NCBI GenBank assembly: GCA_012799645.1
Contig: JAAZKV010000001.1
Location: 1 to 51,850, forward strand
DNA from: Candidatus Iainarchaeum sp.
GTDB taxonomy: Archaea > Iainarchaeota > Iainarchaeia > Iainarchaeales > JAAZKV01
Direction of reading: 5' to 3'
Length of the DNA stretch: 51,850 bases
Translations under genes and position numbers: made by a program
The notes under the pieces: model-generated
Told to the model about the DNA's origin: nothing
What the model saw: only the letters and a program-made list of their open reading frames with translations
Databases searched by the model: none
In this document: one piece after another, positions 5,650 through 49,517 of the stretch
Numbering within the stretch: position 1 is the first letter of the stretch
Layout of the letters: each line of letters opens with the position of its first letter

Positions 5650-6081
5650 ATGAGCAAAGTGTATTATTCAATTGCGAAAGCAAATTCGCTAATCCCAAAA
5701 ATAAAAAAATCAATAGAAAAAATTGAAAAATTAAGGGACGAGATTTTTTTAATTGATAACACAAAAATTCTTTTTGATGAATTATCCCCAAGTAGTCTTT
5801 TGCTAGAAATTGAATTAAACAAAAATTTTCACGAAAAAAACCTAGAAATGTTCACCCTAATTGCTGAACTAATAAAAGAAGGGTGCATTATTAGAAACTT
5901 GGAAGAAGATATTGAAGTGGATTTTTACTCAAAATTCAGAAACAAAGACATTTTTTTGTGCTGGAAAATGGGGGATGAAACAATCAGGTTTTGGCACGAA
6001 ACTTACGAAAAACAAAAACAAAGAAAACCCATTGAAGAACTACACGCACACTATTATGAAAAACTAAAAGAACTAAAATAA
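5650..6081 (+). CDS. DUF2203-like protein
   Basis: ORF 5635..6081, with the ATG at 5650 preferred (TTATAAAC box at 5618-5625, about 25 nt upstream, suggesting a leaderless mRNA). The C-terminal block GCIIRNLEEDIEVDFYSKFRNKDIFLCWKMGDETIRFWH resembles DUF2203 from memory. Confidence 0.55.
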   Translation: MSKVYYSIAKANSLIPKIKKSIEKIEKLRDEIFLIDNTKILFDELSPSSLLLEIELNKNFHEKNLEMFTLIAELIKEGCIIRNLEEDIEVDFYSKFRNKDIFLCWKMGDETIRFWHETYEKQKQRKPIEELHAHYYEKLKELK

Positions 6082-6680: not shown

Positions 6681-8144
6681 ATGGGTTGGGAATTAATAGA
6701 ATCTTATTTTAAAAACAAAAACATAGCACAAATGGAAATTGATTCTTATAATCAATTCATTAGTACAAGGTTGAACGAAATTGTTAAAGAAAATAATCTA
6801 ATTGTTCCAAAAATTGAAGAGGTAAGAATTGAGTTAAGCGATATTGAGGTTGAGAAACCAAAAATAATTGAAGCTGATGGAAGTCCAAGAGATATTTTCA
6901 CTCCAATGGAAGCACGACTTAGAAACAGAAATTACGCAGGGCCAATCTATTTAACTATGAGACTTTTTAGAAGAGATGTTGAACAGGATGCGAGAAGAAC
7001 AAATATTGGAGATATGCCTGTAATGACAAAATCAAAACTATGTTGGCTTGAAGGAAAAAACGAACAAGAACTAATTGAAATGGGAGAGGATCCAAAAGAT
7101 TTTGGAGGATACTTCATAATTAACGGAAGCGAAAAAGCACTAATGACACAAGAAGTACTATCATCCGACAGAGTACTAATTTCGGAAGGAGAAAAAGGAG
7201 TTGTTGCCGAAGTAATTTCAACAAGAGGAGCTTTCAAAGGAAGAGTAAGAGTGTTAAGAACACCAGAAGGAATGATTTACGTATCATTCCCAACCAGTCC
7301 AAAAAGATTGAGTTTGTTCGGATTGTTCAAAGCACTAGGACTTAAAACAAAAAAAGAAGTTTTTGAAGCATTCAATGATGAAAAAGAAATACAAAATGAT
7401 CTACTACTAAACTGGGAAGAATGCGATGTTAGTAATGAACAAGAAGCACTTGACAAAATCGGAAAATATGTTGCACCAGGACAAGTAATTGATTATAGAT
7501 TGAGAAGAGCAAGAGAAGTAATTGACGGATTTTTATTACCACACATTGGACAAGATGAACCAGCAAGATTAGCAAAAGCATACTACTTAGCAATGATGGC
7601 AACAAAAGCAATTGAAAGACACTACAAATTAAGAGGAAAAGATGACAAAGATAATTATGTTAACAAAAGACTTGAACTAAGTGGAAAACTAATGGAACAC
7701 TTATTCAGATACTCGTTCAAGTACTTTGTAAAAGATTTAAGATTCCAAATTGACAGAACTGTTACCAGAAGAAGAAAACTAAACATATCAACTGTTGTTA
7801 GACCTGGAGCAGTGAGTGAAAGAATCAGGTTTGCTATGAGTACAGGAAACTGGATAGGGAGAAGCACAGGAGTAGCAAAATTCATGGACAGAGTGAATTA
7901 TTTAGCACCACTAACTGATTTACGAAAAGTAAAATCACAATTAGCAAAAACAAGAGAATTGTACGAAGCTCGGGATGTTCACGGAACACACTGGGGAAGA
8001 CTTGACCCAATAGAAACACCTGATGGACCACAATGTGGATTAGTAAAAAACTTGTGTTTCATGGCAGAAGTAACAACTGATGCATCAGAAACACCAGTAG
8101 AAGAATTATTACACAAACAAGGAGTAAGATTGAAAAAATTATAA
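6681..8144 (+). CDS. rpoB2: RNA polymerase subunit B'' (N-terminal half of split Rpo2)
   Basis: Translation MGWELIESYFKNKNIAQMEIDSYNQFI...GRLDPIETPDGPQCGLVKNL is recognisably RpoB''. GGGTGA Shine-Dalgarno upstream of ATG 6681. Confidence 0.95.
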   Translation: MGWELIESYFKNKNIAQMEIDSYNQFISTRLNEIVKENNLIVPKIEEVRIELSDIEVEKPKIIEADGSPRDIFTPMEARLRNRNYAGPIYLTMRLFRRDVEQDARRTNIGDMPVMTKSKLCWLEGKNEQELIEMGEDPKDFGGYFIINGSEKALMTQEVLSSDRVLISEGEKGVVAEVISTRGAFKGRVRVLRTPEGMIYVSFPTSPKRLSLFGLFKALGLKTKKEVFEAFNDEKEIQNDLLLNWEECDVSNEQEALDKIGKYVAPGQVIDYRLRRAREVIDGFLLPHIGQDEPARLAKAYYLAMMATKAIERHYKLRGKDDKDNYVNKRLELSGKLMEHLFRYSFKYFVKDLRFQIDRTVTRRRKLNISTVVRPGAVSERIRFAMSTGNWIGRSTGVAKFMDRVNYLAPLTDLRKVKSQLAKTRELYEARDVHGTHWGRLDPIETPDGPQCGLVKNLCFMAEVTTDASETPVEELLHKQGVRLKKL

Positions 8145-8280
8145 ATCGCACTACTAAGCGAAGCGCATGTAGTGCTTCGTCTGGTCCAAGCAAAATTTTA
8201 TTTTGCGGGACCCGTAAAAGCTAAGTGCTTTTACTTGGTCATGGCGAAACAGGACAGAGTAAGATTGAAAAAATTATAAA
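8122..8280 (+). repeat. 24-nt perfect direct repeat (8122-8145 and 8257-8280, the last 24 nt of rpoB'' including its TAA) bracketing a 111-nt GC-richer three-hairpin insert
   Basis: Base-by-base comparison: GAGTAAGATTGAAAAAATTATAAA occurs twice. Hairpins at 8148-8175, 8183-8212 and 8214-8234. Confidence 0.9.
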
Positions 8281-8353
8281 AATTATGAACATCACTAAAC
8301 GAAGTTCGCAAACTTTGATTGTGGTGTCAAAACAAAAAATGGGTGAAAATGGT

Positions 8354-10168
8354 ATGGCAAAAGTAGCAAAGGTTTACATTAATGGAAGATTGATTGGGTT
8401 TCACGATGATCCAGAAAGTTTAACAAACAAAGTTGTGGAATCAAGAAGAGAAGGAAAATTACAAAAAGAAATAAACATCGCTTACCAAAAAGACACTAAC
8501 GAAGTTTACATAAACACTGATGCTGGAAGAGTACAAAGACCACTAATTGTAATAAAAAACGGAAAAAGCACTTACACTCCTGAAATCGCAAAACAAGTAA
8601 AAGAAGGAAAATTAACTTTCCAAAAATTATTAGAAATGGGAATAGTAGAGTACCTTGATGCTGAAGAAGAAGAAAACACACTAATCGCACTAAACGAAGA
8701 AGAAATAACAAAAAACCACACCCACTTAGAAATAAACGGAAGCGCAATACTCGGAGCTGTTAGTAGTTTAATCCCATACATAGAACACGATATGGCAGGA
8801 AAAGCACTACACGGAGCAAAAATGTTCAAACAAGCAATAGGGTTCGGAGCAGCGAACTACAAAATAAGACACGATACAGAAGGATACTTATTATACTACC
8901 CAGAAGTACCAATTGTTAAAACAAAAACAATGGATATGTTACAATTAGAAAAAAGACCACAATCACAAAACTTTGTAATGGCAATAATGCCATTTTACGG
9001 ATTCAACACAATGGATGCAGTAATACTAAACAAAGGAGCAATTGACAGAGGATTAGCAAGAGCGTGTTATCTTAGAAATTACGAAGCATCAGAACAAAGA
9101 TACCCAGGAGGACAAAGAGACAAATTCGAAATACCAACAGAAGAAAAAGTAGGGTTTGTAGAAGAACAACAATTCAAAAAACTAGGAGAGGACGGAATAG
9201 TTAGACTTGAAGAATACATAGAAGAAGGAGAAGCAATTATTGGAAGAACCTCACCACCAAAATTCTTTGAAGACATGACTGATTTTGGAGTGGATGAAGA
9301 AAAAAGAAGAGATAGTTCAGTAACTATTAGAAAAGGAAAACCAGGATATGTTGATACAGTAATGATGACTGAAGGAGAAGATGGAAGCAGATTAGTGAAA
9401 ATAAAAGTAAGAACAACACTAACACCAGCAGTAGGAGACAAAATCGCTTCAAAACACGGACAAAAAGGAGTAGTATCAGCAATCATTCCAGAAGAAGACA
9501 TGCCATTCACTATTGAAGGAATAAAACCTGACCTAATCCTAAACCCACACTCAATCCCATCAAGAATGACCATGGGACACTTAATGGAAATGTTCGGAGG
9601 AAAACTAGGAGCAGCAAAAGGAGAAATAATTGACGGAACCCCATTCAATAGTATGACAAGAGAAGAAATAGAAAAAGAACTAACCAAAGCAGGGTTCAGA
9701 GCGGACGGAATGGAAATATTCTACGACGGAATTACAGGAAAAAGAATAGAAGGAAGCATATTTACAGGAGTAATCGCAACACAAAAACTCTACCACGTAG
9801 TATCACACAAACTACAAGCAAGAGCAAGAGGACCAGTACAAGTACTAACAAGACAACCAACAGAAGGAAAAGAAAAAGAAGGAGGACTACGATTCGGAGA
9901 AATGGAAGGAGAAACACTAGTAGGACACGGAGCAGCAATGTTACTCCACGAAAAAATGATAGAGGACTCAGACAAAACAGTAGAACTCGTATGCGAAAAA
10001 TGCGGAGTAATCGCAGTAAATGATGAAATAAGAAGAAAAAAATACTGCCCACTATGCAAAACAGCAGCAGTGTATCCAGTAGAAATGTCATACGGATTCA
10101 AACTACTATTAGATGAATTAAAAGCGTTAGGAATAATGACAAAATTAAACCTAACAGACAAAGTATAA
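8354..10168 (+). CDS. rpoB1: RNA polymerase subunit B' (C-terminal half of split Rpo2)
   Basis: MAKVAKVYINGRLIGFHDDP...SKHGQKGVVS...GGLRFGEMEGETLVGHGAA...CEKCG...CPLC. GGTGA at 8342-8346 precedes ATG 8354. The ORF-track start at 8225 reads through an upstream insert and is rejected. Confidence 0.95.
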   Translation: MAKVAKVYINGRLIGFHDDPESLTNKVVESRREGKLQKEINIAYQKDTNEVYINTDAGRVQRPLIVIKNGKSTYTPEIAKQVKEGKLTFQKLLEMGIVEYLDAEEEENTLIALNEEEITKNHTHLEINGSAILGAVSSLIPYIEHDMAGKALHGAKMFKQAIGFGAANYKIRHDTEGYLLYYPEVPIVKTKTMDMLQLEKRPQSQNFVMAIMPFYGFNTMDAVILNKGAIDRGLARACYLRNYEASEQRYPGGQRDKFEIPTEEKVGFVEEQQFKKLGEDGIVRLEEYIEEGEAIIGRTSPPKFFEDMTDFGVDEEKRRDSSVTIRKGKPGYVDTVMMTEGEDGSRLVKIKVRTTLTPAVGDKIASKHGQKGVVSAIIPEEDMPFTIEGIKPDLILNPHSIPSRMTMGHLMEMFGGKLGAAKGEIIDGTPFNSMTREEIEKELTKAGFRADGMEIFYDGITGKRIEGSIFTGVIATQKLYHVVSHKLQARARGPVQVLTRQPTEGKEKEGGLRFGEMEGETLVGHGAAMLLHEKMIEDSDKTVELVCEKCGVIAVNDEIRRKKYCPLCKTAAVYPVEMSYGFKLLLDELKALGIMTKLNLTDKV

Positions 10169-10306
10169 AATAAAAAAATTTGAAAAAAAAAGAAAAATGT
10201 GAAAATAAAAATTTTTGAAAAAATGGAGGAACAATGACTTGAAAAGCTTTATTGAGCGAGTGAAAAACAAGCGAAAATAATGCTCACACGTTAAGGGTGA
10301 TTGGTT

Positions 10307-12925
10307 ATGATAATGAAAAAAATTGGAAGTGTTGAGTTCAGTATTTTAGGACCTGAAATGATTAGAAAAATGAGTGCGATAGAAATCAAAACACCCGAAA
10401 CTTATGACAAAGATGGATACCCAATGGAAGGAGGGCTAATGGATGCTCACCTAGGAGTAATCAATCCAGGAATAAGATGCAAAACTTGCGGACAAGGAAT
10501 GAGAAATTGCCCAGGACACTTCGGACACATTGAACTAGAAAGACCTGTTGTTCACTCAGAGTTTGGAAGAAAACTAGAACTACTAATGAACACTACATGT
10601 AAAGATTGCGGAAACATACTATTACCAGAAGAACAAATAAAAAAATTACAAGAAGAAGCAAAAGGAAAAGTGGTTGATAAAACAAAAAAAATAATGATAA
10701 AAACAAAAACCGTAAAAAAATGCCCACACTGTTCAGCACCAGCACACAAAACAACACTTGACAAACCAACAAACTTCTTCTACAACAAAGAAAGAATTTA
10801 CCCAACACAAATAAGAGAATGGGTAGAAAAAATACCAGAAGAACACCTAAGAATACTAGGATATGACACTACAAGAATCAAACCAGAATGGTTCATAATG
10901 ACCTCACTACAAGTACCACCAATCACTATAAGACCGAGCATAACACTTGATAATGGAATAAAATCAGAAGATGATTTAACACACAAACTAGTTGATATTA
11001 TTAGAATTAATCAAAGATTAAAAGACAACATAGAAGCAGGAGCACCACAACTAATAATAGAAGATCTATGGGACCTGCTACAATACCACGTAACAACCTA
11101 CTTTGATAACAACACCGCAGGAGTGCCACCAGCAAAACACAGAAGTGGAAGACCACTAAGAACAATAATACAAAGATTGAAAGGAAAAAAAGGAAGATTC
11201 AGATACAACCTAACAGGAAAAAGAGTAAACCACGCAGCAAGAACAATAATCGTGCCAGACCCATACATTGATTTATCAGAACTAGGAATACCAGAAGAAG
11301 CAGCAAAAGAACTAACAGTACCAGAGTTCGTAACAGAATGGAATCTAGAAACAGTAAAAAAAATTGTGGAAAAAAGCGACAGACCAGTATACATTATAAG
11401 ACCAAACGGAACAAGAAGAAAAGTAACAGAAGAAAACAAAGAAGAAATCGTAAAAGAAATTGATATTGGATACAGAATAGAAAGAAACCTAAAAGACGGA
11501 GATATTGTTTTATTCAACAGACAACCATCACTACACAGAATGAGTATGATGGCACACACCGCAAGAATTATGCCAGGAAAAGTATTCAGAATGAACCCAA
11601 TAGTGTGTCCCCCATACAACGCTGACTTTGATGGAGATGAAATGAACTGCCACGTACCACAAACAGAAGAAGGAAAAGCAGAAGCAAAAAAACTAATGCT
11701 AGCAAGAGACCAAATCATATCACCAAGATTCGGAGCACCAGTAATCGCACCAAAAGAAGACGGAGTGAGCGGAGCATTCGCACTAACAATGCCACAAACA
11801 GAATTCACAAAAGAAACAGCAATGCAACTAATGTACGAAATAGGAGTAACAGAATTACCAAAACCTGACAGAGGAAAAAAATACTCAGGAAAATTAATAT
11901 TCTCACAAATACTACCAAAAGACCTAAACCTAGAATACGAATCATACACAAGCAAAATATTCAAACAAGCAGGAATGAAACCAGAAGACGGAAAAATAAT
12001 AGAACAATACATGAACAAAGTAAAAATCGTGAACGGAAACATAGAAAGCGGAGTAATTGATTCCGCATCATTAAGTGAAGGAAAAGGAGTACTAGTTGAT
12101 ACAATAGCAAGAGAATACGACAGCATAGTACTTGAACAATTCTACCACGATCTAAACAGATTAACAGGATACATTTTAACAGAAAAAGGAATGACAGCAT
12201 CACTAGCAGAATATGATGTGAGCAACAACATCGAAACACTAAAAAACAAAGTAATAAACGAAACCATGAAAAAAGCAGAAGAACTAGTAGAATCATACAA
12301 AAAAGGAACAATGGAAATCATACCAGGAAGAACAATACAAGAATCATTCGAACAATACATGATGAGAATTTCAGCAGAAGCAAAAGACAAAGTAGAAAAA
12401 GCAATAATGCAAGAAAAACTACAATACGTAACAGGAGAAGAAGCAGTGCTAAACACAATCGCCATGATACTATCAAAATCAAGAGGAAGCACTACAAACC
12501 TAATGAACATAGCAGGGTTCTGGGGACAAGCATCAGTAAGAGAAGGAAGACCAAAAAAAGGATTCAAGAAAAGACTAATCACATCAAACGAAAGAGCAGA
12601 TGAAGGACTACTAGCAGGAGGATTCATAACCAACAACTTCTTGGACGGAATGACAGCAAAACAATACTTCTACCACTCAATGGGAGGAAGACAAGGAGAA
12701 GTAGACACAGGAGTATCAACAAAAGTATCAGGATACTTATACAGAAGACTAGCAAACTCACTAAAAGACATAGTATCAGCTCCTGACGGAACAGTAAGAA
12801 CAGCATCAAACTCACTAATACAATACCAATACGGAGAAGACGGAGTGTTCCCAAAAAACACTAACAAAGGAAAAAGCGTGGATGTATTAGAAGAATACAA
12901 AAAAATGAAAGCGAAAAAAAATTAA
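10307..12925 (+). CDS. rpoA1: RNA polymerase subunit A' (Rpo1N)
   Basis: CKTCGQGMRNCPGHFGHIEL, RFNRQPSLHRMSMMAH-type block (FNRQPSLHRMSMMAHTARIM) and the catalytic NADFDGDEMN motif. GGGTGA at 10295-10300. Confidence 0.95.
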   Translation: MIMKKIGSVEFSILGPEMIRKMSAIEIKTPETYDKDGYPMEGGLMDAHLGVINPGIRCKTCGQGMRNCPGHFGHIELERPVVHSEFGRKLELLMNTTCKDCGNILLPEEQIKKLQEEAKGKVVDKTKKIMIKTKTVKKCPHCSAPAHKTTLDKPTNFFYNKERIYPTQIREWVEKIPEEHLRILGYDTTRIKPEWFIMTSLQVPPITIRPSITLDNGIKSEDDLTHKLVDIIRINQRLKDNIEAGAPQLIIEDLWDLLQYHVTTYFDNNTAGVPPAKHRSGRPLRTIIQRLKGKKGRFRYNLTGKRVNHAARTIIVPDPYIDLSELGIPEEAAKELTVPEFVTEWNLETVKKIVEKSDRPVYIIRPNGTRRKVTEENKEEIVKEIDIGYRIERNLKDGDIVLFNRQPSLHRMSMMAHTARIMPGKVFRMNPIVCPPYNADFDGDEMNCHVPQTEEGKAEAKKLMLARDQIISPRFGAPVIAPKEDGVSGAFALTMPQTEFTKETAMQLMYEIGVTELPKPDRGKKYSGKLIFSQILPKDLNLEYESYTSKIFKQAGMKPEDGKIIEQYMNKVKIVNGNIESGVIDSASLSEGKGVLVDTIAREYDSIVLEQFYHDLNRLTGYILTEKGMTASLAEYDVSNNIETLKNKVINETMKKAEELVESYKKGTMEIIPGRTIQESFEQYMMRISAEAKDKVEKAIMQEKLQYVTGEEAVLNTIAMILSKSRGSTTNLMNIAGFWGQASVREGRPKKGFKKRLITSNERADEGLLAGGFITNNFLDGMTAKQYFYHSMGGRQGEVDTGVSTKVSGYLYRRLANSLKDIVSAPDGTVRTASNSLIQYQYGEDGVFPKNTNKGKSVDVLEEYKKMKAKKN

Positions 12926-12960
12926 AAAAACAAAAAAAATAAAAAAAAACAAAATTGTGA

Positions 12961-14304
<1,344 letters not shown>

Positions 14305-14362
14305 AAAAAAACAAAAAAAAATCTACGACAAAAAAAAACTCCACTAAACAATTAAAAAAAGC

Positions 14363-14392
14363 GTGGCCAAAAGCCACTGCTTTTCTATTTTT
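14363..14392 (+). terminator. hairpin GTGGC-CAAAA-GCCAC plus T-rich tract after rpoA''
   Basis: Stem-loop at 14363-14377 followed by TGCTTTTCTATTTTT. Confidence 0.6.
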
Positions 14393-14450
14393 AAAAAAAA
14401 CAATTACCCAACAATCGGCCAAAACATAACACAAAAAATAACCCCTCACA

Positions 14451-14465
14451 TTAACCTTTATAAAC
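14451..14465 (+). promoter_or_regulatory. BRE/TATA-like box (TTTATAAA at 14457-14464) for the L30e-nusA-S12 unit
   Basis: CCTTTATAAAC resembles other putative boxes in this window (GCCTTTAAAAGC, GCATTTATAAACC). Confidence 0.55.
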
Positions 14466-14709
14466 TTTACATTATTGAATTAGTTTAGAACCTTGAGAAG
14501 TCCAAAGCGATGCTTGGATGGAGTAGGGTAATTTATTATTACTTATTTTCCAAATCATTCTCAAGAAAAATTAGCAAAAAAAACAAAAAAATTGAACAAA
14601 GAAAAATTGGTAAAATTTTAGTTCTGGTGAGCTAAAAAATTATTGAACAAAAATTAAACAAAAATAATTGAGTAAAAATAATTAAAAGAACAAAAAATAG
14701 TGATTTTTT

Positions 14710-15006
14710 ATGGATACAAATAAAGAAATTAGAAGAGCGGTGGATACAGGAAAAGTATCTTTTGGATACAAAACTTGTCAAAAAAATTTATTACACGGAG
14801 AAGGAGAAATGATTATTGTTAGCAACAATTTACCAAAAAATGATAAAGAAGTTTTACAACATTTAGCAAAAACGGAAGGGAAAAAATTTTTTGAGTACCC
14901 CGAAAATGGTTTAACACTAGGAAGTGTGTGCGGAAAACCATTCGTAGTATCAGCAATGATAGTGCTTGACGCGGGAAAAAGTAGCGTACTCGAATTAACA
15001 AAGTGA
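14710..15006 (+). CDS. rpl30e: 50S ribosomal protein L30e (eL30)
   Basis: IRRAVDTGKVSFGYKTCQKNLLHGEGEMIIVSNNLP... is typical eL30; conserved position after rpoA''. Confidence 0.9.
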   Translation: MDTNKEIRRAVDTGKVSFGYKTCQKNLLHGEGEMIIVSNNLPKNDKEVLQHLAKTEGKKFFEYPENGLTLGSVCGKPFVVSAMIVLDAGKSSVLELTK

Positions 15007-15046
15007 GGTTTGCTAAGCGAACTTTACTAAATGTGAGCGGTTAAAT

Positions 15047-15442
15047 ATGAAACTCACTATGAAAGAAATATTGTTAATGAATGCATTAACTAATGTGAGC
15101 AAAGTCTCACCAAAGGATTGCATTATTGAAAACAACATAGTTACTTTCCTTGTGAACTCCAACGAAGTTGGAAAAGCAATAGGAAAAAAAGCAACAAATG
15201 TTAAAGAACTTGAAACCAAGTTAAAAAAAAGAATAGAAATAATTGGTTATTATGAAAAACCAGAAATGGTGATAGAGAAAACATTTGATGCGACAAGCAC
15301 CTCCGTGAAAGAAAAAAAAGAAAAAATAATAATCACAATGGATGGAACAAATAAAAGAAAAGTTTTAGGAAATTTTTCAAGGTTTAAGAGAGTGAAAGAA
15401 TTAATTAAAAGAAATTACGGAGTGGAAATAATTTTAGTATAA
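15047..15442 (+). CDS. nusA: archaeal NusA-like KH-domain transcription factor
   Basis: About 130 aa; KH-type block NEVGKAIGKKATNVKELE; conserved position between L30e and S12. Confidence 0.85.
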   Translation: MKLTMKEILLMNALTNVSKVSPKDCIIENNIVTFLVNSNEVGKAIGKKATNVKELETKLKKRIEIIGYYEKPEMVIEKTFDATSTSVKEKKEKIIITMDGTNKRKVLGNFSRFKRVKELIKRNYGVEIILV

Positions 15443-15624
15443 AAACACAATGAGTAATAATATGAGTGAGGATTGTGAGCAGGGATTATGTTTAGTGAGT
15501 ATGAGCAGTAATTAGGTTTAGTGAGTATATTTAGTGATTATGAGCAGGGATATGAGTAATAGTGGTTATGGGTAGTGAGTATGTTTAGTAATTTAGAAAT
15601 TTGATTTTTAGAGATGTGATTTGA
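15443..15624 (+). repeat. C-poor degenerate array of TTTAGTGAGTAT-type motifs in the nusA-rps12 spacer
   Basis: TTTAGTGAGTAT at 15491 and 15517, TTTAGTGATTAT at 15530, GGTAGTGAGTAT at 15571, TTTAGTAATTTA at 15584, interleaved with TGAGCAGGGAT/TGAGCAGTAAT. Confidence 0.8.
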
Positions 15625-16056
15625 ATGGGTTATGGAGAATTTGCAGGAAATAGTTTGATCAAAAAAAGAAAAAAAGCTAAAAAGAAAGACATTAGATATT
15701 TGAAAAAAATTAGGGCAAAAAGAGGAGAGTACAAAGATTTACTAGAAGGCGCTCCACAAGGAAGAGGAATTGTTCTAGAAAAAAGAGGAGTGGAAGCAAA
15801 ACAACCAAACTCAGGAATACGAAAATGCGTAAGAGTACAATTAATCAAAAACGGAAAAGAACTAACCGCACTAGCACCAAGAGATGGAGCAATAAAATTT
15901 ATTGATGAACACGATGAAGTAACAGTATCAGGAAGTGGAGGAGCACAAGGAGGACCATACGGAGATCTTTGGGGAGTAAAATACCAAGTAACTCACGTTA
16001 ATGGAGTAGCTCTACAAATGTTAAGAAAAGGAAAGAAAGAAAAATCTAAGAGATAA
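15625..16056 (+). CDS. rps12: 30S ribosomal protein S12 (uS12)
   Basis: [44 protein letters not shown]... is recognisably uS12. Confidence 0.95.
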
Positions 16057-16077
16057 AAAAAATAGGTGTGTGAATTG

Positions 16078-16872
16078 ATGGATAAAAAAATTGATGACAA
16101 TAAAAAAATAGAAGACAAAAAAGAAACAAAAATTGTTGCAGAAAAACCAAAAGGAGAAAAAAAAGTTTTCTCACAAAAAAAACACGAACCAAAAGAACAA
16201 GTTCCACAAGAACACAAAAGCGAAGCTAAAGAAAAACCTATTTTTGTTAAAAAGAAAAACTTGTTCCCTGAATACAAAATGTTCAACAAGTGGGACACAA
16301 GTGAAGTGGTAGTAAAAGATCTAAGTTTAGTTAGATACATTAATCTTGACACAATCATTATTCCACACACTTTTGGAAGAAAAGGACAAGGAAGATTTGC
16401 TAAAGCAAACGTAAACATTGTTGAAAGATTAATCAACAAAATAATGAGATCAGGGCAAGGAAAAAGAAAACTAAGTGGAAAATATGTTAGAGGGAGAGGA
16501 AGTTGTGGAAAAAAAATGCAAGCAATACAAATAGTAGAAAGAGCATTTGAAATTGTTGAAAAGAAAACAAAAAAGAACCCAATCCAAGTACTAGTTGATG
16601 CGGTAGAAAATGCTGCACCAAGAGAAGATATTACAAGAATCAAAAGAGGAGGAGTTGCATACTCACTCGCTGTTGATGTTTCACCAATCAAAAGACTTGA
16701 TGAAGCACTAAAAAACATTGCACTCGCAGGTTTTGGTAATTCTTTTAACAAAAAAGTAAGCGCTGAAGAAGCACTTGCGGAAGAAATAATTGCTGCTGCT
16801 GCAGGAGACATGAAGAGCTCTGCACTAAAAAGAAAAGAAGAAGTAGAAAGAGTAGCAAGGGCAAGTAGATAG
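16078..16872 (+). CDS. rps7: 30S ribosomal protein S7 (uS7) with about 65 aa of K/E-rich N-terminal extension
   Basis: NIVERLINKIMRSGQGKRKLSGK...VDAVENAAPREDITRIKRGGVAYSLAVDVSP. AGGTG Shine-Dalgarno, then ATG 16078. Confidence 0.92.
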   Translation: MDKKIDDNKKIEDKKETKIVAEKPKGEKKVFSQKKHEPKEQVPQEHKSEAKEKPIFVKKKNLFPEYKMFNKWDTSEVVVKDLSLVRYINLDTIIIPHTFGRKGQGRFAKANVNIVERLINKIMRSGQGKRKLSGKYVRGRGSCGKKMQAIQIVERAFEIVEKKTKKNPIQVLVDAVENAAPREDITRIKRGGVAYSLAVDVSPIKRLDEALKNIALAGFGNSFNKKVSAEEALAEEIIAAAAGDMKSSALKRKEEVERVARASR

Positions 16873-17017
16873 ATGCCTTAATTCTATCAAGCCAAAGGCA
16901 AAAATAGCGCACTCTAAAACAAACAAATGAAATGAGAGTGTAATAAGCCCTACCTCGCGTTAGCGAGTGTAGTGCGCGTGTGAACGGAGCAAGCCGTTCA
17001 GCAAGGGCAAGTAGATA
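16854..17017 (+). repeat. 18-nt perfect direct repeat (16854-16871 and 17000-17017, the 3' end of rps7) bracketing a 128-nt GC-richer hairpin-rich insert
   Basis: AGCAAGGGCAAGTAGATA occurs twice. The first copy is completed to stop TAG, the second to TAA. Hairpins CTCGC-GTTA-GCGAG (16954-16967) and TGAACGG-AGCAAG-CCGTTCA (16981-17000). Confidence 0.9.
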
Positions 17018-17087
17018 AATAATTTATTTGCGATTTAGTTTTCGTGCTTTTTTTTTAAAAGCACAAATTTATTTTTAAGGTGGTTAG

Positions 17088-19280
17088 ATGGGAAGAAGAG
17101 AAGAAATGGCAAAAGTAGTTGAAGATTTAATGATTAATAGGGATGATATTAGAAATATTGGAACAGTTGCACACATTGACCACGGAAAAACAACACTATC
17201 TGATTCTTTAGTTGCTGCGGCAGGATTAATAAATTATGATTTGGCCGGAGAAGCACAAGTAATGGATTATGAAGATCAAGAACAAGAAAGAGGAATAACC
17301 ATTAACTCGGCTAACATTTCAATGATGTTTGAATGGAAACAAAAAAAACACATCGTTAATTTAATTGACACTCCAGGACACGTTGATTTTACTGGAGAAG
17401 TAATAAGAGCAATGAGAGCGGTTGATGGAGTAATATTACTAGTTGATTCTGTTGAAGGAGTAATGCCACAAACAGAAACAGTTATTAGACAAGCACTAAA
17501 AGAATACGTAAAACCTGTTTTGTTCATAAACAAAGTTGATAGAATTATTAAAGAACTAAACGCTAGCGAACAACAAATGCAAGAAAAATTCATAAAAGTA
17601 ATATCACAAGTAAATAATCTAATTGAAAGAAACGCACCTGAACAATTCAAAAAAGAATGGCAAGTTAGTATCCAAAAAGGAACTGTTGGTTTTGGTTCAG
17701 CTAAAAGAAAATGGGGAATTAGTGCAGCGCATATGCAAAAAACAGGAATTAATTTTAAACAAGTATACCAATACTTGAAAGAAGATAAACAAGATGAGTT
17801 AGCAAAAATTTCTCCAGTACACGAAGTTGTTTTACAAATGGTTGTAGAACACTTACCTTCACCTGTGGAAGCACAAAAATACAGAATACAAAAAATTTGG
17901 GGCGGAGATATGGAGAGTGACATTGCTAAACAAATGGCGGCATGTAACCCTGATGCACCACTATCAATGGTTATCACTGATGTATCGGTTGATCCACACG
18001 CAGGAGATGTTGCAACAGGAAGAATTTACTCCGGAGCAATTCACCCAGGAGATATAGTAAAAATTTTGTCAGCTGATAAAGAACTAAAAGTACAAAAAGT
18101 TGGACTTTACTTTGGAAACGATCTTGTTCCAATAAACAAATCAGTTGCTGGAAACATTATTTCTCTTGTTGGATTAAAAGATATTTATTCAGGAGAAACA
18201 ATTTCTACAACAGAAATGAAATCTTTTGAAAACTTTATGAGTAATGCAGAACCAGTTATGACAATATCTATTGAAGCAAAAGACCCAAAAGATTTACCAA
18301 AACTAATTGAAGCTTTAAGAAAACTACAAAAAGAAGATCCTAACCTAAAAGCAACAATAAACCAAGAAACAGGAGAACACTTACTTAGTGGAATGGGAGA
18401 ACTTCACTTAGAAGTAAACATTTACAGAATAATAAACAACCACAAAATACAAGTACAAACATCACAACCAATTGTTGTTTATCACGAAGCAATAACAGGG
18501 GATAGTGAAACACTTGAAGCAAAATCACCAAACAGACACAACAAATTCAAAATGAAAGCACGACCAGTGCCTCAAGAAATTTATGACAAAATAATTGAAA
18601 CAAGATTGGATGGAAAAATCAAACCAAAACACGCAGAAAGTGTTGAAAAACTAAAAGCTGTTGGGTTTGACACTGATACTGCTAGAAAAGTATGGGCAGT
18701 AATTAATGGGTGTGTTCTAATAGATAAAACAAGAGGAATACAAGCATTACACGAAATCAGAGAACTTGTAGTACAAGGATTCAGTGATGCTGTAAACGAA
18801 GGACCACTAGCTAAAGAAAGATGCCAAGGAGTAATGATAGAACTAGAAGATGCAACACTACACGAAGATGCAATCCACAGAGGACCAGCACAAGTACTAC
18901 CAGCAATTACAAGAGGAATATACGCTTGCATGCTACAAGCAGGAACACAATTATACGAACCAAAACAAATACTATCAATCACAGTACCGGAAGATATGAT
19001 GGGAGCAGCATCAAGAGAACTAGGAACAAGAAGAGTACAAATAACAGAAATGAAAACAGAAGGAGACTCAAGTATAGTTATAGGAAAAGCTCCAGTAAAA
19101 GAACTAATCGGATTCAGTTCAGCAATGAGAGGAGCAACACAAGGAAAAGCACAATGGACAGCAGAATACTACGGATACGAACTCCTACCAAGAGAACTAC
19201 AATCAACAACAATAAAAGAAATAAGAAAAAGAAAAGGAATGCCTGACGAAATGAAATCATGGCAATTCTTTTTAGAATAA
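17088..19280 (+). CDS. fusA: translation elongation factor aEF-2
   Basis: GTPase motifs AHIDHGKTTLSD, DTPGHVDF, NKVDR; diphthamide-loop region HEDAIHRGPAQ. AGGTGG Shine-Dalgarno upstream. Confidence 0.97.
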   Translation: MGRREEMAKVVEDLMINRDDIRNIGTVAHIDHGKTTLSDSLVAAAGLINYDLAGEAQVMDYEDQEQERGITINSANISMMFEWKQKKHIVNLIDTPGHVDFTGEVIRAMRAVDGVILLVDSVEGVMPQTETVIRQALKEYVKPVLFINKVDRIIKELNASEQQMQEKFIKVISQVNNLIERNAPEQFKKEWQVSIQKGTVGFGSAKRKWGISAAHMQKTGINFKQVYQYLKEDKQDELAKISPVHEVVLQMVVEHLPSPVEAQKYRIQKIWGGDMESDIAKQMAACNPDAPLSMVITDVSVDPHAGDVATGRIYSGAIHPGDIVKILSADKELKVQKVGLYFGNDLVPINKSVAGNIISLVGLKDIYSGETISTTEMKSFENFMSNAEPVMTISIEAKDPKDLPKLIEALRKLQKEDPNLKATINQETGEHLLSGMGELHLEVNIYRIINNHKIQVQTSQPIVVYHEAITGDSETLEAKSPNRHNKFKMKARPVPQEIYDKIIETRLDGKIKPKHAESVEKLKAVGFDTDTARKVWAVINGCVLIDKTRGIQALHEIRELVVQGFSDAVNEGPLAKERCQGVMIELEDATLHEDAIHRGPAQVLPAITRGIYACMLQAGTQLYEPKQILSITVPEDMMGAASRELGTRRVQITEMKTEGDSSIVIGKAPVKELIGFSSAMRGATQGKAQWTAEYYGYELLPRELQSTTIKEIRKRKGMPDEMKSWQFFLE

Positions 19281-19303
19281 AACAAAAACGATTTTTAGGA
19301 ATA

Positions 19304-19344
19304 GCAAACGCCAAAAGCGTTTGCGAAATTCTTTTTTTCTTTTT
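19304..19344 (+). terminator. hairpin GCAAACGC-CAAAA-GCGTTTGC plus T-tract after aEF-2
   Basis: 8-bp perfect stem at 19304-19324, then GAAATTCTTTTTTTCTTTT. Confidence 0.7.
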
Positions 19345-19417
19345 ACAAAATTTTTTTATAAAAATTGTTTTTCCCAAAAAAATCTATTTATTATTCTTAT
19401 CTTAATTATTTTTTATT

Positions 19418-20548
19418 ATGATACCGAATAATTTGAAGGATCTTGTTACTTTTGTTCCAAACAAAAATGAGTCAATACACAATTGGTTTTATTACAAAGA
19501 AGGTTATTCAAAAGAACTCATAGAGTGGCTTGTTAAAGAATACAAACTCACTGGACCAATTTATGATCCCTTTGCAGGAGTTGGAACAACTCTGCTTGTT
19601 GCAAAAAATTTGGGGATTAGTGCGATAGGAACTGATGTGAGTCCGCTAACATCATTCATTTGCAGTGTGAAAACAAGAAATTATGACACTAGTATTTTGA
19701 AAGAAGAGCTTGAAAAACTTGCTAAACTAAAACCAACAATGGTTGGAAAATATCCAAACAAAAAAATCAGAGAATTATTCAGAGCAAAAAACTTGGATGA
19801 TATATACTACTACCATCAAAAAATATTTGAAATCAAAGATGAAAAAACAAAAAACTTTTTTATGCTCGCATTAATTGACACCACTGGAAGAGTAGCGAAT
19901 GTAATCAAAACCGGTGGAAGTTTAAAAAAAATAAAAAAACACCACATGGATGTAAAAAAACTTTTATTAGGAAAAATAAAAAGAATGATACTTGATATTG
20001 AAAGAACAGAAAACAAAAAAAAACAAATCTCGCAAAATATTGGACAACCTTTGGAGTCAATTGAACCAATTATTTACAACGAAGATGCGCGAACTTTTAG
20101 ATTGGAAGAAAATTCTATTGGGTGTGTTATCACTTCCCCCCCATATTTGAATAAAATTGAGTACACTTCTGTTTACAAAATGGAGCTTGGATTATTTTTT
20201 GATGAACAAGAAACTAGACTTCGTTCTTATGTTGGAGATGTTCCTAGTGTAGAGGGTGAAGAATATGCAGGGTTACCAAATATCGCTATTGCATATTTTC
20301 AGGATATGAAAAAAGTTTTGGAAAATATTTATTTTTGTTTAAAACCAAAAGGAAAAGCTTTCATTATTGTCGCAGGAGGGTGTTTGCCTGATAGAACAGT
20401 GAATTCCGAAACAATAATTGCTGAAGATGCTAAAAAAATAGGATTCACCCTAATTGACATAATTACTGCGAGAGAAATTGCTTGCGTAACAAACCGAACC
20501 CAACACATCGGAAAAGTAAAAGAAGCGATAATCATACTAGAAAAATAA
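19418..20548 (+). CDS. SAM-dependent DNA methyltransferase (N4-C or N6-A type), orphan
   Basis: DPFAGVGTT (SAM-binding motif I) near aa 50 and VITSPPY (motif IV, (S/D/N)PPY) about 190 aa later. No adjacent endonuclease ORF. The 3' end is followed by a duplicated copy of itself (see findings). Confidence 0.65.
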   Translation: MIPNNLKDLVTFVPNKNESIHNWFYYKEGYSKELIEWLVKEYKLTGPIYDPFAGVGTTLLVAKNLGISAIGTDVSPLTSFICSVKTRNYDTSILKEELEKLAKLKPTMVGKYPNKKIRELFRAKNLDDIYYYHQKIFEIKDEKTKNFFMLALIDTTGRVANVIKTGGSLKKIKKHHMDVKKLLLGKIKRMILDIERTENKKKQISQNIGQPLESIEPIIYNEDARTFRLEENSIGCVITSPPYLNKIEYTSVYKMELGLFFDEQETRLRSYVGDVPSVEGEEYAGLPNIAIAYFQDMKKVLENIYFCLKPKGKAFIIVAGGCLPDRTVNSETIIAEDAKKIGFTLIDIITAREIACVTNRTQHIGKVKEAIIILEK

Positions 20549-20648
20549 TTGCCACTACGTGTGATTGAAAACCACACAATGAGTCATTCACGCCGGCTCT
20601 GAAGGCCGATCGAGGAGAGTAAAAGAAGCAATAATCCTACTAGAAAAA
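20515..20648 (+). repeat. 31-nt direct repeat with 2 mismatches (20515-20545 and 20618-20648, the 3' end of the methyltransferase) bracketing a 72-nt insert that begins with the stop codon in use
   Basis: AGTAAAAGAAGCGATAATCATACTAGAAAAA versus AGTAAAAGAAGCAATAATCCTACTAGAAAAA. The insert starts TAATTGCCACTACG. Confidence 0.9.
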
Positions 20649-20994
20649 GGAGGATTGGAAGTCGAAAATAAGGCTTGGAAAGTGCAAGGACAAAAACACG
20701 CTATTAAACGTGGATAGAGCGAAACAAATGAACTCTTCAAATTTTAACCAAGGGGAAATAATTTAGCCCCCTTTCCTTTCTCAACCCTTGCACAAGTCAA
20801 ATTAAAACCAGCATTAGTAATATTCAGACTTTGCTAAATCAATAAAGTGGGGAAATTGATTCACTTGAAGGTCCAATAAACGACAAAACTGTTAGACAAG
20901 TAATGGTAGCAAAAGTAACAAAAGATTGTTATTTAAGTTCAAATAGTGACTCAACAATTAGTCCGCCAACATTACCAAACTAAATTAATAATTA

Positions 20995-21029
20995 ATTACC
21001 GATCGAAAGATCGGTAATTCTTTCTTTTT
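20995..21029. terminator. 10-bp perfect palindromic hairpin ATTACCGATC-GAAA-GATCGGTAAT plus T-tract, between the convergent methyltransferase region and hicA (bidirectional terminator candidate)
   Basis: Inverted repeat at 20995-21018, then TCTTTCTTTTT. Confidence 0.6.
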
Positions 21030-21036
21030 AAAAGAA

Positions 21037-21267
21037 TTATAAAAGTTTTACTAGTTCTTCTCTTGTAATATTCAAATCTTGTTTCATTATTTTGTTTAAC
21101 AATCCAACAGGGATTGGTTTGTTTGAGTGAAAAGGAATTGTTAATTTTCTCCCATCAAGATGCACAAAAGTTTTGTGTGATCCTTTTTGTCGCTCTTCAA
21201 CAAAACCCAATTTTAAAACGATTTTGCACAACTCTTGAGGATAAATTATAGGAAGTTTCATTAACAA
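21037..21267 (-). CDS. hicA: type II toxin HicA-family (YcfA-like mRNA interferase)
   Basis: GFVEERQKGSHKTFVHLDGRKLTIPFHSNKPIPVGLLNKIMKQ matches the HicA GSH...H...P.H pattern. Confidence 0.85.
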   Translation of the reverse strand: MLMKLPIIYPQELCKIVLKLGFVEERQKGSHKTFVHLDGRKLTIPFHSNKPIPVGLLNKIMKQDLNITREELVKLL

Positions 21268-21274
21268 TCCTTCT

Positions 21275-21493
21275 TTAACAAACAGCTACTTTCACCAAAC
21301 CAACAACGCTGGTAGTAACTTTTATTTTACTTTTTTTCATACTTTCAAGATGCAAACTAATCGCTTCTTTTATTGATTCAAGCAATTCTTCAACAGAATC
21401 AGCATAAGAATAACAACCAGGCAAAGCAGGAACAGAAGCATAAAATTGCCCGGATTTAGAATCTTTTTCTAAAACAACATCAAAATCCAACAT
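21275..21493 (-). CDS. hicB: type II antitoxin HicB-family (UPF0150)
   Basis: FDVVLEKDSKSGQFYASVPALPGCYSYADSVEELLESIKEAISLHLE is a typical HicB N-terminal domain. It sits 7 nt upstream of hicA. Confidence 0.85.
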   Translation of the reverse strand: MLDFDVVLEKDSKSGQFYASVPALPGCYSYADSVEELLESIKEAISLHLESMKKSKIKVTTSVVGLVKVAVC

Positions 21494-21738
21494 ATTAAAA
21501 ACACCTAAAATAATAACCTAAAGTAATACATACAAGAACTTAATAAAAAACTATCTAAATTCAACAAAACCCAAATCCCACAAAATCAATCCTATAAAAT
21601 CATTTTTTATTAAATTATTTTTTTAAAAAAATATAACTTAAATTCAAACAAAATTAAACTCAAACAAAACTTAAGCAATAAAATAATTTAATATTGCTAA
21701 GTGGTGAGTGAAATTCGTATTTTTTCAACATTCTTTGC

Positions 21739-21753
21739 GAAGCCTTTAAAAGC
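21739..21753 (+). promoter_or_regulatory. BRE/TATA-like box (TTTAAAAG at 21745-21752) upstream of tuf
   Basis: GAAGCCTTTAAAAGC, about 100 nt before ATG 21855. Confidence 0.55.
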
Positions 21754-21854
21754 TTTCTTTAAGAGTAATTACTTAAATGCGTTGTCTGGTGAACGGCTTA
21801 AAATCGCGGAAGTAACGCTATTTAGTGCGATATAAGAGCATGGAGGAATTGAAA

Positions 21855-49352: not shown

Positions 49353-49517
49353 GCAGGGGTTCCCGAGCGGTCAAAGGGGCAGGACTTAAGATGTCAAACA
49401 AAAGGCAAAAAAGCTCTATCAAAGCCAAAAGCAAGATAGTGTGCACTTGTCCAAAGGGAAAAACAGATGTGATCCTGTGGCTTAGTGCCTTCGACGGTTC
49501 AAATCCGTCCCCCTGCA
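49353..49517 (+). tRNA. tRNA-Leu(UAA), class II (long variable arm), interrupted by an 81-nt intron at the 37/38 position
   Basis: Hand fold. Acceptor GCAGGGG/CCCCTGC. D arm CCC..GGG with loop GAGCGGTCAAA. Anticodon stem CAGGA (49380-84)/TCCTG (49473-77), loop CTTAAG+A. Variable arm TGGCTTAGTGCCTTC. T arm GACGG-TTCAAAT-CCGTC. Discriminator A; no encoded CCA. Confidence 0.9.
49391..49471 (+). other. tRNA-Leu intron (81 nt; boundary could shift by 1 nt because A flanks both junctions)
   Basis: This is the sequence between anticodon-loop G37 (49390) and A38/TCCTG. It is A-rich and does not fit any tRNA arm. I could not confirm a bulge-helix-bulge by eye. Confidence 0.75.

Follow-up and report, generated by a model that had tools for sequence, protein, structure and literature searches.

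Three short, GC-rich, non-coding inserts, here called X1, X2 and X3, were analysed in a 51,850-nt stretch of the genome of Candidatus Iainarchaeum sp. (contig JAAZKV010000001.1; the whole stretch is referred to as the window), where each follows the stop codon of a + strand gene and is bracketed by two copies of that gene's end. With a probability that we put at roughly one half, X1–X3 are partly composite copies from a family of double-hairpin elements, short, GC-rich and non-coding, that is specific to this lineage, proliferates in the AT-rich genomes of Iainarchaeia (DPANN archaea) and reaches new sites by being copied in through recombination or template switching. The family shows mobility, a modular build and structured copies, with a patchy distribution among close relatives and fast gain and loss. 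Most of its copies are bracketed by an 18–57 nt duplicate lying across a gene boundary, and the upstream open reading frame (ORF) therefore keeps its end and stop codon, while the downstream unit keeps its original upstream sequence. On the best reading, these are elements akin to repetitive extragenic palindromes (REP), miniature transposable elements with inverted repeats (MITEs) or mitochondrial GC clusters, with an unusual coupling to gene boundaries. Throughout, E1 denotes the first repeat copy, X the insert and E2 the second copy; L-numbers denote fetched loci.

Three inserts between duplicated gene ends

The upstream genes are rpoB'' (X1), S7 (X2) and a DNA methyltransferase gene (X3), and the repeat copies and inserts at these three sites are given on the + strand. 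At the first site, E1 (8122–8145) consists of the final 20 nt of rpoB'', its stop codon TAA and 1 nt, and constitutes the functional gene end. It is followed by X1 (8146–8256, 111 nt) and by E2 (8257–8280), a duplicate rpoB'' end that is 100% identical to E1 over 24 nt and forms the native upstream context of rpoB' (ATG at 8285). A family-A double-hairpin element makes up 8146–8184 plus 8238–8256 of X1; the intervening 53 nt (8185–8237) are a nested module of two hairpins with a TGGTC direct repeat on both sides. Gene callers start rpoB' from a GTG inside X1 (8225–10168, 647-aa product), whereas conservation places the start at the ATG of position 8285 or farther downstream, and the first ~20 residues of the called protein are insert-derived.

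At the second site, E1 (16854–16871) comprises the final 16 nt of S7 and the TA of its stop codon, which the first base of X2 completes to TAG. X2 (16872–16999, 128 nt) is a composite of about four hairpins, the left part of which, TTCTATCAAGCCAAAGGC, is homologous to X4, an insert located just past the window end. E2 (17000–17017) repeats the 18 nt of E1 exactly, reads TAA at the stop codon and runs on into the native S7–EF-2 spacer.

At the third site, E1 (20515–20545) represents the final 31 nt of the methyltransferase gene ahead of its native stop, and E2 (20618–20648), which is without a stop codon, differs from it by two mismatches, GCG>GCA (synonymous) and ATA>CTA (Ile>Leu). X3 (20546–20617, 72 nt) opens with TAATT (20546–20550), which is the native stop and the next two bases, as methyltransferase homologues all end in ...LEK* and the relative L181 reads GAAAAATAATTC; the two-hairpin insert proper is 20551–20617. 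Further hairpins, CACG..CGTG and GAGCGAAAC..CTC, lie after this E2 (20649–20745) and may be an older, degenerate family copy.

Six pairs of direct repeats of at least 18 nt within 400 nt were observed in the window against 0.04 expected in Markov-1 simulations (~150-fold), and those other than the three insert pairs are coding tandem repeats. GC content of the inserts is 0.45–0.50, compared to 0.31 for the window. Folding of X1 and X2 was significantly more stable than that of shuffled sequences (z = −5.1 and −3.7), whereas that of X3 was not (z = −0.65). Rfam 15 covariance models gave no match at gathering score in the window and none below E ~ 1 in the three inserts, which also contain no tRNA. 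A preliminary description of this DNA had placed the inserts directly at or after stop codons, with direct copies of the preceding gene end on both sides and a stop preserved at each left junction, all of which agrees with the above; its portrayal of all three as GC-rich, non-coding and rich in hairpins is borne out too, with significant folding in X1 and X2.

Independent assemblies and empty sites

X1–X3 are confirmed as real insertions. The sequence of X1 is identical across JGI, NCBI and Logan contigs, and those of X2 and X3 across ENA, JGI and Logan contigs; an assembly artefact, which the preliminary description had named as a possible refutation, is rejected on these grounds. Several contigs end inside X1 or X2, an effect that multi-copy sequence has on assembly graphs: a 118-kb ENA contig begins near position 8225 of the window, and breaks in Logan contigs lie at ~8212 and ~16950. 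The rpoB''/rpoB' junction is tight and lacks X1 in L013, L017, L018, L016 and L014. The S7/EF-2 site is empty in the closest relative, L087 (93–97% protein identity), and the spacer there matches the sequence after E2 of the window. Templating of X from its own flanks, by snap-back or template switching in cis, was also considered and rejected, the signal being not beyond chance.

Further cases in the same genome and in relatives

Scans were conducted for duplicated C-terminal peptides followed by a stop, for direct repeats without prior bias and for repeats flanking GC-rich gaps, and they yielded two more cases in the same genome and ~15 in related Iainarchaeia operons. The former were found in L171, a locus of the same genome reaching past the window end: X4 after S28e (insert 15948–16007, 60 nt; 38-nt repeats at 15910–15947 and 16008–16045) and X5 after S6e (insert 19863–19926, 64 nt; 34-nt repeats at 19829–19862 and 19927–19960), bringing the number of cases to five in the ~60 kb of this genome covered.

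In relatives, cases were located at the ends of rpoB'' and rpoA'' (L087/L175/L176), at the rpoH/rpoB'' and rpoB''/rpoB' junctions (L180), and at the ends of rpoA'' (L179, L017, L009), rpoB'' (L012), S10 (L013), EF-2 (L088), RtcB (L089) and a small Cys-rich ORF (L014). One further case, in L177, lies at the start of a minus-strand radical-SAM gene, with a 57-nt duplication and the insert in antisense. Presence was patchy among lineages 82–100% identical to each other. Nothing comparable was detected in ~65 control loci of haloarchaeal, Hadarchaeal and other archaeal origin, and the right module of the family was not found in a viral-contig scan.

Two of these loci have further features. In L177, a 93%-identical relative, the place of X1 at the rpoB''/rpoB' junction is taken by ~490 nt (11056–11548), including a 110-aa ORF that belongs to no known family. 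In L089, a free-standing LAGLIDADG-domain ORF (8305–9183, minus strand) is located between archease and RtcB, the gene whose 3' end is duplicated around the insert.

A modular double-hairpin family

X1, X2, X4 and X5 belong to one modular, multi-copy double-hairpin family, and the proposal in the preliminary description that the three window inserts form a family thus stands for X1 and X2, which are alignable and structured, while X3 is linked to it by architecture and a weak right-hairpin match only (CGCCGGCTCTGAAGGCCG, similar to the right hairpins of L088 and L089). In the shared plan, a variable outer stem and a small GC inner stem form the left hairpin, in which GAA-type loops (e.g. GCGAAGC) are frequent; next come a linker, (C/T)TCG(T/C), and a right hairpin, which often has GGCGAAAC as its loop. 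Units measure ~50–75 nt, with a GC content of 0.45–0.57 compared to 0.30–0.35 in host sequence, and nested and mosaic units occur among the copies.

Removal of the nested 53-nt module from X1 leaves the 58-nt insert present at the same junction in L087 (1 mismatch), and a second L087 copy, between rpoA' and rpoA'' (5888–5945), is 96% identical to the first at a different junction. In L180, a copy of the X1 type lies at rpoB''/rpoB', and the nested module of the window has a homologue in this locus as well. The L095 copy, between L30e and NusA, combines a different left hairpin with the same right module, TCGTCTGGCCATGGCGAAACAGGGCA. The L095, L180, L017 and L179 copies have the right module in common. 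The left hairpin of X4 matches the L087 rpoA'' insert (z = 9.3) and X2 (z = 6.4), and the right module of the L087 rpoA'' insert matches L095 (z = 6.7). All significant family pairs are on the same strand; this includes X2 and X4, which contradicts the opposite orientation that had been proposed for X2. A covariance model built from seven members recovered X5 and further, weaker copies.

Compensatory changes were seen in four of the five pairs of the right-hairpin stem. The variable columns of the X1 left stem, six in number, all fall on stem positions, with two double compensatory changes among four copies, and the arms covary as CACTAC/GTAGTG to CGCTAC/GTAGCG, and CTCTATC/GATAGTG. The hexamer CACTAC, or its complement, does occur in all three window inserts as had been pointed out, but with a chance probability of 0.15 and as one arm of a covarying stem it was rejected as a family signature. 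Readings of the conserved motifs as C/D-box sRNA, hammerhead or K-turn found no support in Rfam or on inspection.

Hairpins linked or possibly linked to the family occur elsewhere in the window. A left-hairpin homologue, GCTCTATCAAAGCCAAAAGCAAGATAGTG (49413–49441, + strand; cf. GCTCTATCAAGCGAAGCGCAGATAGTGC in L180), is located within the intron (~83 nt) of a gene for tRNA-Leu(UAA). This gene (49353–49517), between rpoD and L18e, was missed by ARAGORN and was recovered by Rfam at 38 bits in a permissive search only. A small hairpin, GGTTTGCTAAGCGAAC (15007–15022, + strand), stands directly after the L30e stop and has CTAAGCGAA in common with X1. L017 and L094, where the spacer measures 11 nt, lack this hairpin; it is possibly a minimal or relic family member. 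Upstream of L30e, a motif of the form CCTTGAGAAG-[variable hairpin]-GGAGTAAGG (14470–14530) is conserved in all relatives, at the same position in L007, L009, L013, L017, L091, L178 and L179, and may be an autoregulatory RNA element of L7Ae/L30e type; a family insert occupies its loop in L091 and L179.

Selection for non-mobile, cis-acting RNA or DNA structures, such as terminators, attenuators or processing and stability sites, with the repeats as local tandem duplications, would account for the location of the inserts at cistron boundaries of highly expressed operons and mostly in sense, for the compensatory stem changes, and for the fact that the right end adjoins the Shine-Dalgarno sequence of the next gene in several cases. 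We regard this as quite improbable given copies 96% identical at unrelated junctions, patchiness among lineages 82–100% identical, a nested insertion, and inserts that do not derive from their local flanks. A function of the hairpins is compatible with mobility and is no substitute explanation for it.

Length, position and co-evolution of the flanking duplications

All duplications of at least 18 nt flanking GC-rich inserts span a gene boundary: 17 contain a stop codon, which in one case overlaps the start of the next gene, and one lies across a gene start. Within the family, duplication length is 0–1 nt in L095, where the insertion could be rebuilt exactly from L094 and L017, 5 nt for the nested X1 module, 8 nt in L091, and 18–57 nt elsewhere. 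At the rpoA' site of L087 there is no duplication; this copy carried 11 nt of the rpoB'' tail and displaced the native A-rich spacer. Since some family copies have duplications of 0–8 nt, the flanking repeat is not a target-site duplication of the fixed kind that a transposase makes. Copies also occur away from stop codons, namely in inter-cistronic spacers without duplication (L095 and the rpoA' site of L087), within the loop of a conserved 5'-untranslated-region hairpin upstream of L30e (L091, L179), in the tRNA intron and at the antisense gene start in L177. The targeting of gene 3' ends suggested earlier therefore holds for the long duplications, which are tied to gene ends, but stop codons are not strictly targeted.

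A classical non-autonomous transposon, similar to MITEs or to the IS200/IS605-derived PATEs and moved by a trans-acting transposase with widely staggered cuts, would leave true target-site duplications, and both the multi-copy elements with presence/absence polymorphism and the exact flanking repeats of the resident allele at young insertions are in line with it. A few insertion sequences (of IS1630 and IS1634 type) are moreover known to make long duplications of variable length. We consider this origin unlikely, as the elements have no terminal inverted repeats, duplication length ranges from 0 to 57 nt within a single family, one copy brought along flank from its previous site and displaced a spacer, E2 of X3 is not continuous with native sequence, and no transposase gene was found in the window or fetched loci. 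This material likewise contains no integrase, reverse transcriptase or Cas1.

E1 and E2 co-evolve, in a pattern unlike that of a decaying non-coding copy. At rpoB''/rpoB', E1 equals E2 in the window, in L087 and in L180, even though the E sequences of these lineages are distinguished by synonymous changes and the X1-type element itself has diverged. Across cases, 20 of the 24 codon differences between E1 and E2 keep the meaning (16 synonymous, 4 stop-to-stop), with the other 4 being conservative replacements. The differences are often in patches: in L179, 18 identical nt are followed by 5 differences in three Leu/Val codons; in L089, three third-position differences precede 34 identical nt; and in L013, EIELKA* is encoded twice with four synonymous differences. 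Such a pattern would be producible by frequent gene conversion, or by import of donor alleles via recombination within E2.

Synonymous patches of this kind (L179, L013, L012, L089) could also point to capture of a foreign allele by homology-facilitated illegitimate recombination, in which E1 and X would be donor DNA anchored in a conserved gene and E2 the displaced resident end. E1 tends towards codons that end in G or C, whereas the AT-rich consensus is retained in E2; X itself is GC-rich, some relatives are richer in GC, and the sites lie at the ends of highly conserved genes, all of which would suit this explanation. It appears improbable nonetheless: in young cases E1 equals E2 and carries resident-specific synonymous variants (L087 rpoA''), the same element follows different genes, so that X is not simply the orthologous 3' flank of a donor, and no relative has X1 or X2 natively downstream without E2.

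Proposed route of insertion and points against it

We infer that family copies enter new sites by recombination or replication, through template switching or gene conversion at microhomology, rather than through a transposase of fixed stagger. Where copying returns to the target upstream of the position at which it left, a duplication would result; a return at that position would give none, and one downstream of it a deletion. In a genome that is ~90% coding, selection would retain only those events which leave both neighbouring genes intact. Frequent gene conversion between E1 and E2 would later homogenise the copies and expose the non-functional one to coding selection; differences between them may be nearly all synonymous because gene conversion would test E2 variants in the coding copy. 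As conserved coding sequence, E2 could also be usable as a right-hand homology arm, permitting lateral moves by homologous recombination, and recombination between two copies would result in precise loss.

A number of observations weigh against this account. At the X3 site, which is less tidy than those of X1 and X2, E2 is not continued by native downstream sequence, and that case at least needs an extra event. The repeats mostly end 0–6 nt past the stop (+17 and +21 in X4 and X5), for which selection alone offers no obvious explanation, and 5 out of 13 start at −15 or −16 from the stop, a pattern noticed post hoc which recombination or template switching does not predict. Fourteen of 15 oriented copies are in sense to the upstream gene, a bias that neutral copying of DNA would fit less well than a process at the RNA level or a function of the RNA. 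Covariation in the X1 stem, calculated from only 4 sequences, is reached by 27 of 500 shuffles, and the tie of X3, L088 and L089 to the family is weak (z = 2.4–4.1), being limited to the architecture and to a right hairpin of the form TT(T)CGCC(G/A)GCC...GGC. No mobilising enzyme or intermediate was seen in the ~0.5 Mb sampled from this lineage, all of it around the same operons.

A route coupled to RNA or translation is kept alive because the repeat ends near the stop, the −15/−16 starts and the sense bias are unexplained by the favoured model. In one form, which is doubtful, X would be a selfish insert of a new kind whose insertion is mechanistically coupled to the ORF end, through ribosome-defined mRNA ends combined with RNA ligase and reverse transcription or through a boundary-recognising nuclease, and the duplicated gene end would be a portable homology arm for homing by recombination into the same housekeeping gene in other lineages. 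In another, hairpin RNA would be joined to mRNA fragments with ends set by the terminating ribosome (e.g. by endonuclease cuts and RtcB re-ligation), followed by reverse transcription and recombination into DNA. Besides the sense bias, carry-over of upstream flank is expected of a transcript-derived copy, the −15/−16 starts lie near the point where a ribosome holding the stop in its A site would have its 5' edge (again a post hoc observation), a family hairpin is found within a tRNA intron, and RtcB is encoded in the window. We hold this second form to be rather unlikely, since no reverse transcriptase was seen in any fetched sequence, the junctions lack a bulge-helix-bulge (BHB) motif, one copy (L177) is antisense, and the ribosome-edge pattern is based on few cases.

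Comparison with known systems

The literature searched contained no equivalent archaeal element, only analogues, namely the Pyrobaculum sRNA MITEs and mitochondrial GC clusters. Fungal mitochondrial GC clusters and double-hairpin elements are the closest analogues, with bacterial REP and bacterial interspersed mosaic elements (BIMEs) also close. The yeast GC42 family consists of short GC-rich hairpin modules in an AT-rich compact genome (PMC4478555), and double-hairpin elements are known from Allomyces (Paquin et al. 2000, as cited there). Like the present family, these systems have GC-rich units set in an AT-rich genome, occur patchily among close relatives, and show merging and shuffling of units; they are exchanged between lineages by homologous recombination at conserved flanks, as our inserts may be, with no dedicated enzyme known. 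They differ in being organellar, with 2–3 nt repeats (AG or ACT), whereas here an archaeal chromosome carries an 18–57 nt gene-boundary repeat co-evolving with a functional gene end.

REP, BIME and REPIN elements of bacteria, associated with RAYT transposases, are likewise high-copy, structured, extragenic palindromes just after genes or between cistrons, with a possible role in mRNA stability, and imperfect extragenic palindromes clustered in such positions are found here as well. RAYTs are not known to have been reported in archaea. The tetranucleotides GTAG/CTAC are present in X1–X3 within the covarying stem, and absent from most relatives' copies. REP elements do not duplicate gene ends, unlike the inserts described here.

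With MITEs and PATEs the inserts have in common small size, non-autonomy and multiple copies, PATEs also having hairpins, and the dispersed copies with presence/absence polymorphism typical of MITEs were observed. MITE duplications are short and of constant length, whereas here they are variable, and terminal inverted repeats are missing, the ends of X1, X4, X5 and the relatives' copies not being mutual inverted copies. For PATEs no duplication is expected, and a constant short target sequence 5' of the left end; two of our copies lack a duplication and X1 copies share TTATAA(A) on the left, but most copies have long duplications, and no Y1 (TnpA) transposase gene occurs in the window or loci examined, of which ~60 kb belong to this genome. 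Integrative elements, and mobile ORFs of fungal mitochondria, with a replacement 3' end similarly keep a gene intact by means of a second 3'-end copy, which can differ synonymously; they are kilobases long and encode an integrase or endonuclease, whereas our inserts are non-coding and 50–130 nt. Archaeal BHB introns are also short structured inserts in archaeal genes, and one family hairpin does lie in the window's tRNA intron, but our inserts have no BHB motif at their junctions and follow a stop codon, so that splicing would not be needed.

It is highly improbable that the inserts are attL/attR scars of larger elements with a gene 3'-end copy, or alternatively BHB introns, programmed translational bypass gaps, repeats of diversity-generating retroelements (DGRs) or assembly artefacts. 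Duplication of a gene 3' end is typical of site-specific integration, but the ~20 events all measure 17–128 nt and no integrase accompanies them. GC-rich gaps between matching codons in an AT-rich genome superficially resemble the mitochondrial 'byps', but stop codons are kept. Read-through into an in-frame second copy was rejected too, spacing being a multiple of 3 in just 3 of 12 cases and open frames across X being explained by GC content, as was a mini-ORF from an ATG in the right module of X1, in frame with E2 in the window and not in L087. No consistent BHB motif emerged from 16 cases in either bulge geometry, in a scan where the window's own tRNA intron scored as a relaxed motif only. 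The DGR reading was discarded given that E1 and E2 differ mostly by synonymous A/G transitions, which run in both directions and are not adenine-specific, the repeats are too short at 18–38 nt, and no reverse transcriptase was seen; an artefact does not explain the same sequence in independent assemblies. Membership among MITEs, BHB introns, DGRs and att scars thus fails on at least one defining feature tested in each case, as it probably does among PATEs, and known small repeat elements do not have the 18–57 nt gene-end duplicate.

Few repeat families have been described in DPANN archaea, whose genomes are tiny and streamlined, and in the present lineage even the best-conserved operons (RNA polymerase, S12–S7–EF-2, ribosomal proteins) turn over small structured inserts between genomes 93–97% identical. 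Long boundary duplications combined with concerted evolution represent a simple route to harmless insertion in a gene-dense genome, and may also permit lateral spread through conserved genes. A mechanistic coupling to stop codons would point to an archaeal insertion pathway not yet described. In practical terms, the inserts break assembly graphs, mislead gene callers (as at rpoB') and could serve as strain markers.

Operon context and additional observations

Gene order in the window is rpoH, rpoB'', rpoB', rpoA', rpoA'', L30e, NusA, S12, S7 and EF-2, followed by an islet with the DNA methyltransferase and HicAB, and then by EF-1alpha, S10, RtcB and a large ribosomal-protein operon. S12 is ~80% identical to the nearest named relatives among the matches listed, metagenome-assembled genomes of Candidatus Iainarchaeum/Diapherotrites (DPANN). 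The islet (19281–21824), comprising the methyltransferase (N6_N4_Mtase) and a HicA/HicB toxin-antitoxin pair (21037–21493, minus strand), is a small variable segment of a core operon, because EF-2 and EF-1alpha are adjacent in the more distant relatives L012 and L013.

The NusA–S12 spacer (15471–15589) contains three copies of a 26-nt direct repeat, 77–81% identical and unrelated to the hairpin family. Among the fetched loci, EF-2 of L014 (9715–13437) is a continuous 1240-aa ORF with ~500 extra residues after the P-loop region, which are most likely an intein. Three haloarchaeal controls (L022, L059 and L069, at ~1000–1340) display an exact 30-nt repeat, CCGCGTCACAACCGTGACAGGGTTGTATGA, at a spacing of ~68–97 nt, in a layout resembling a CRISPR array.

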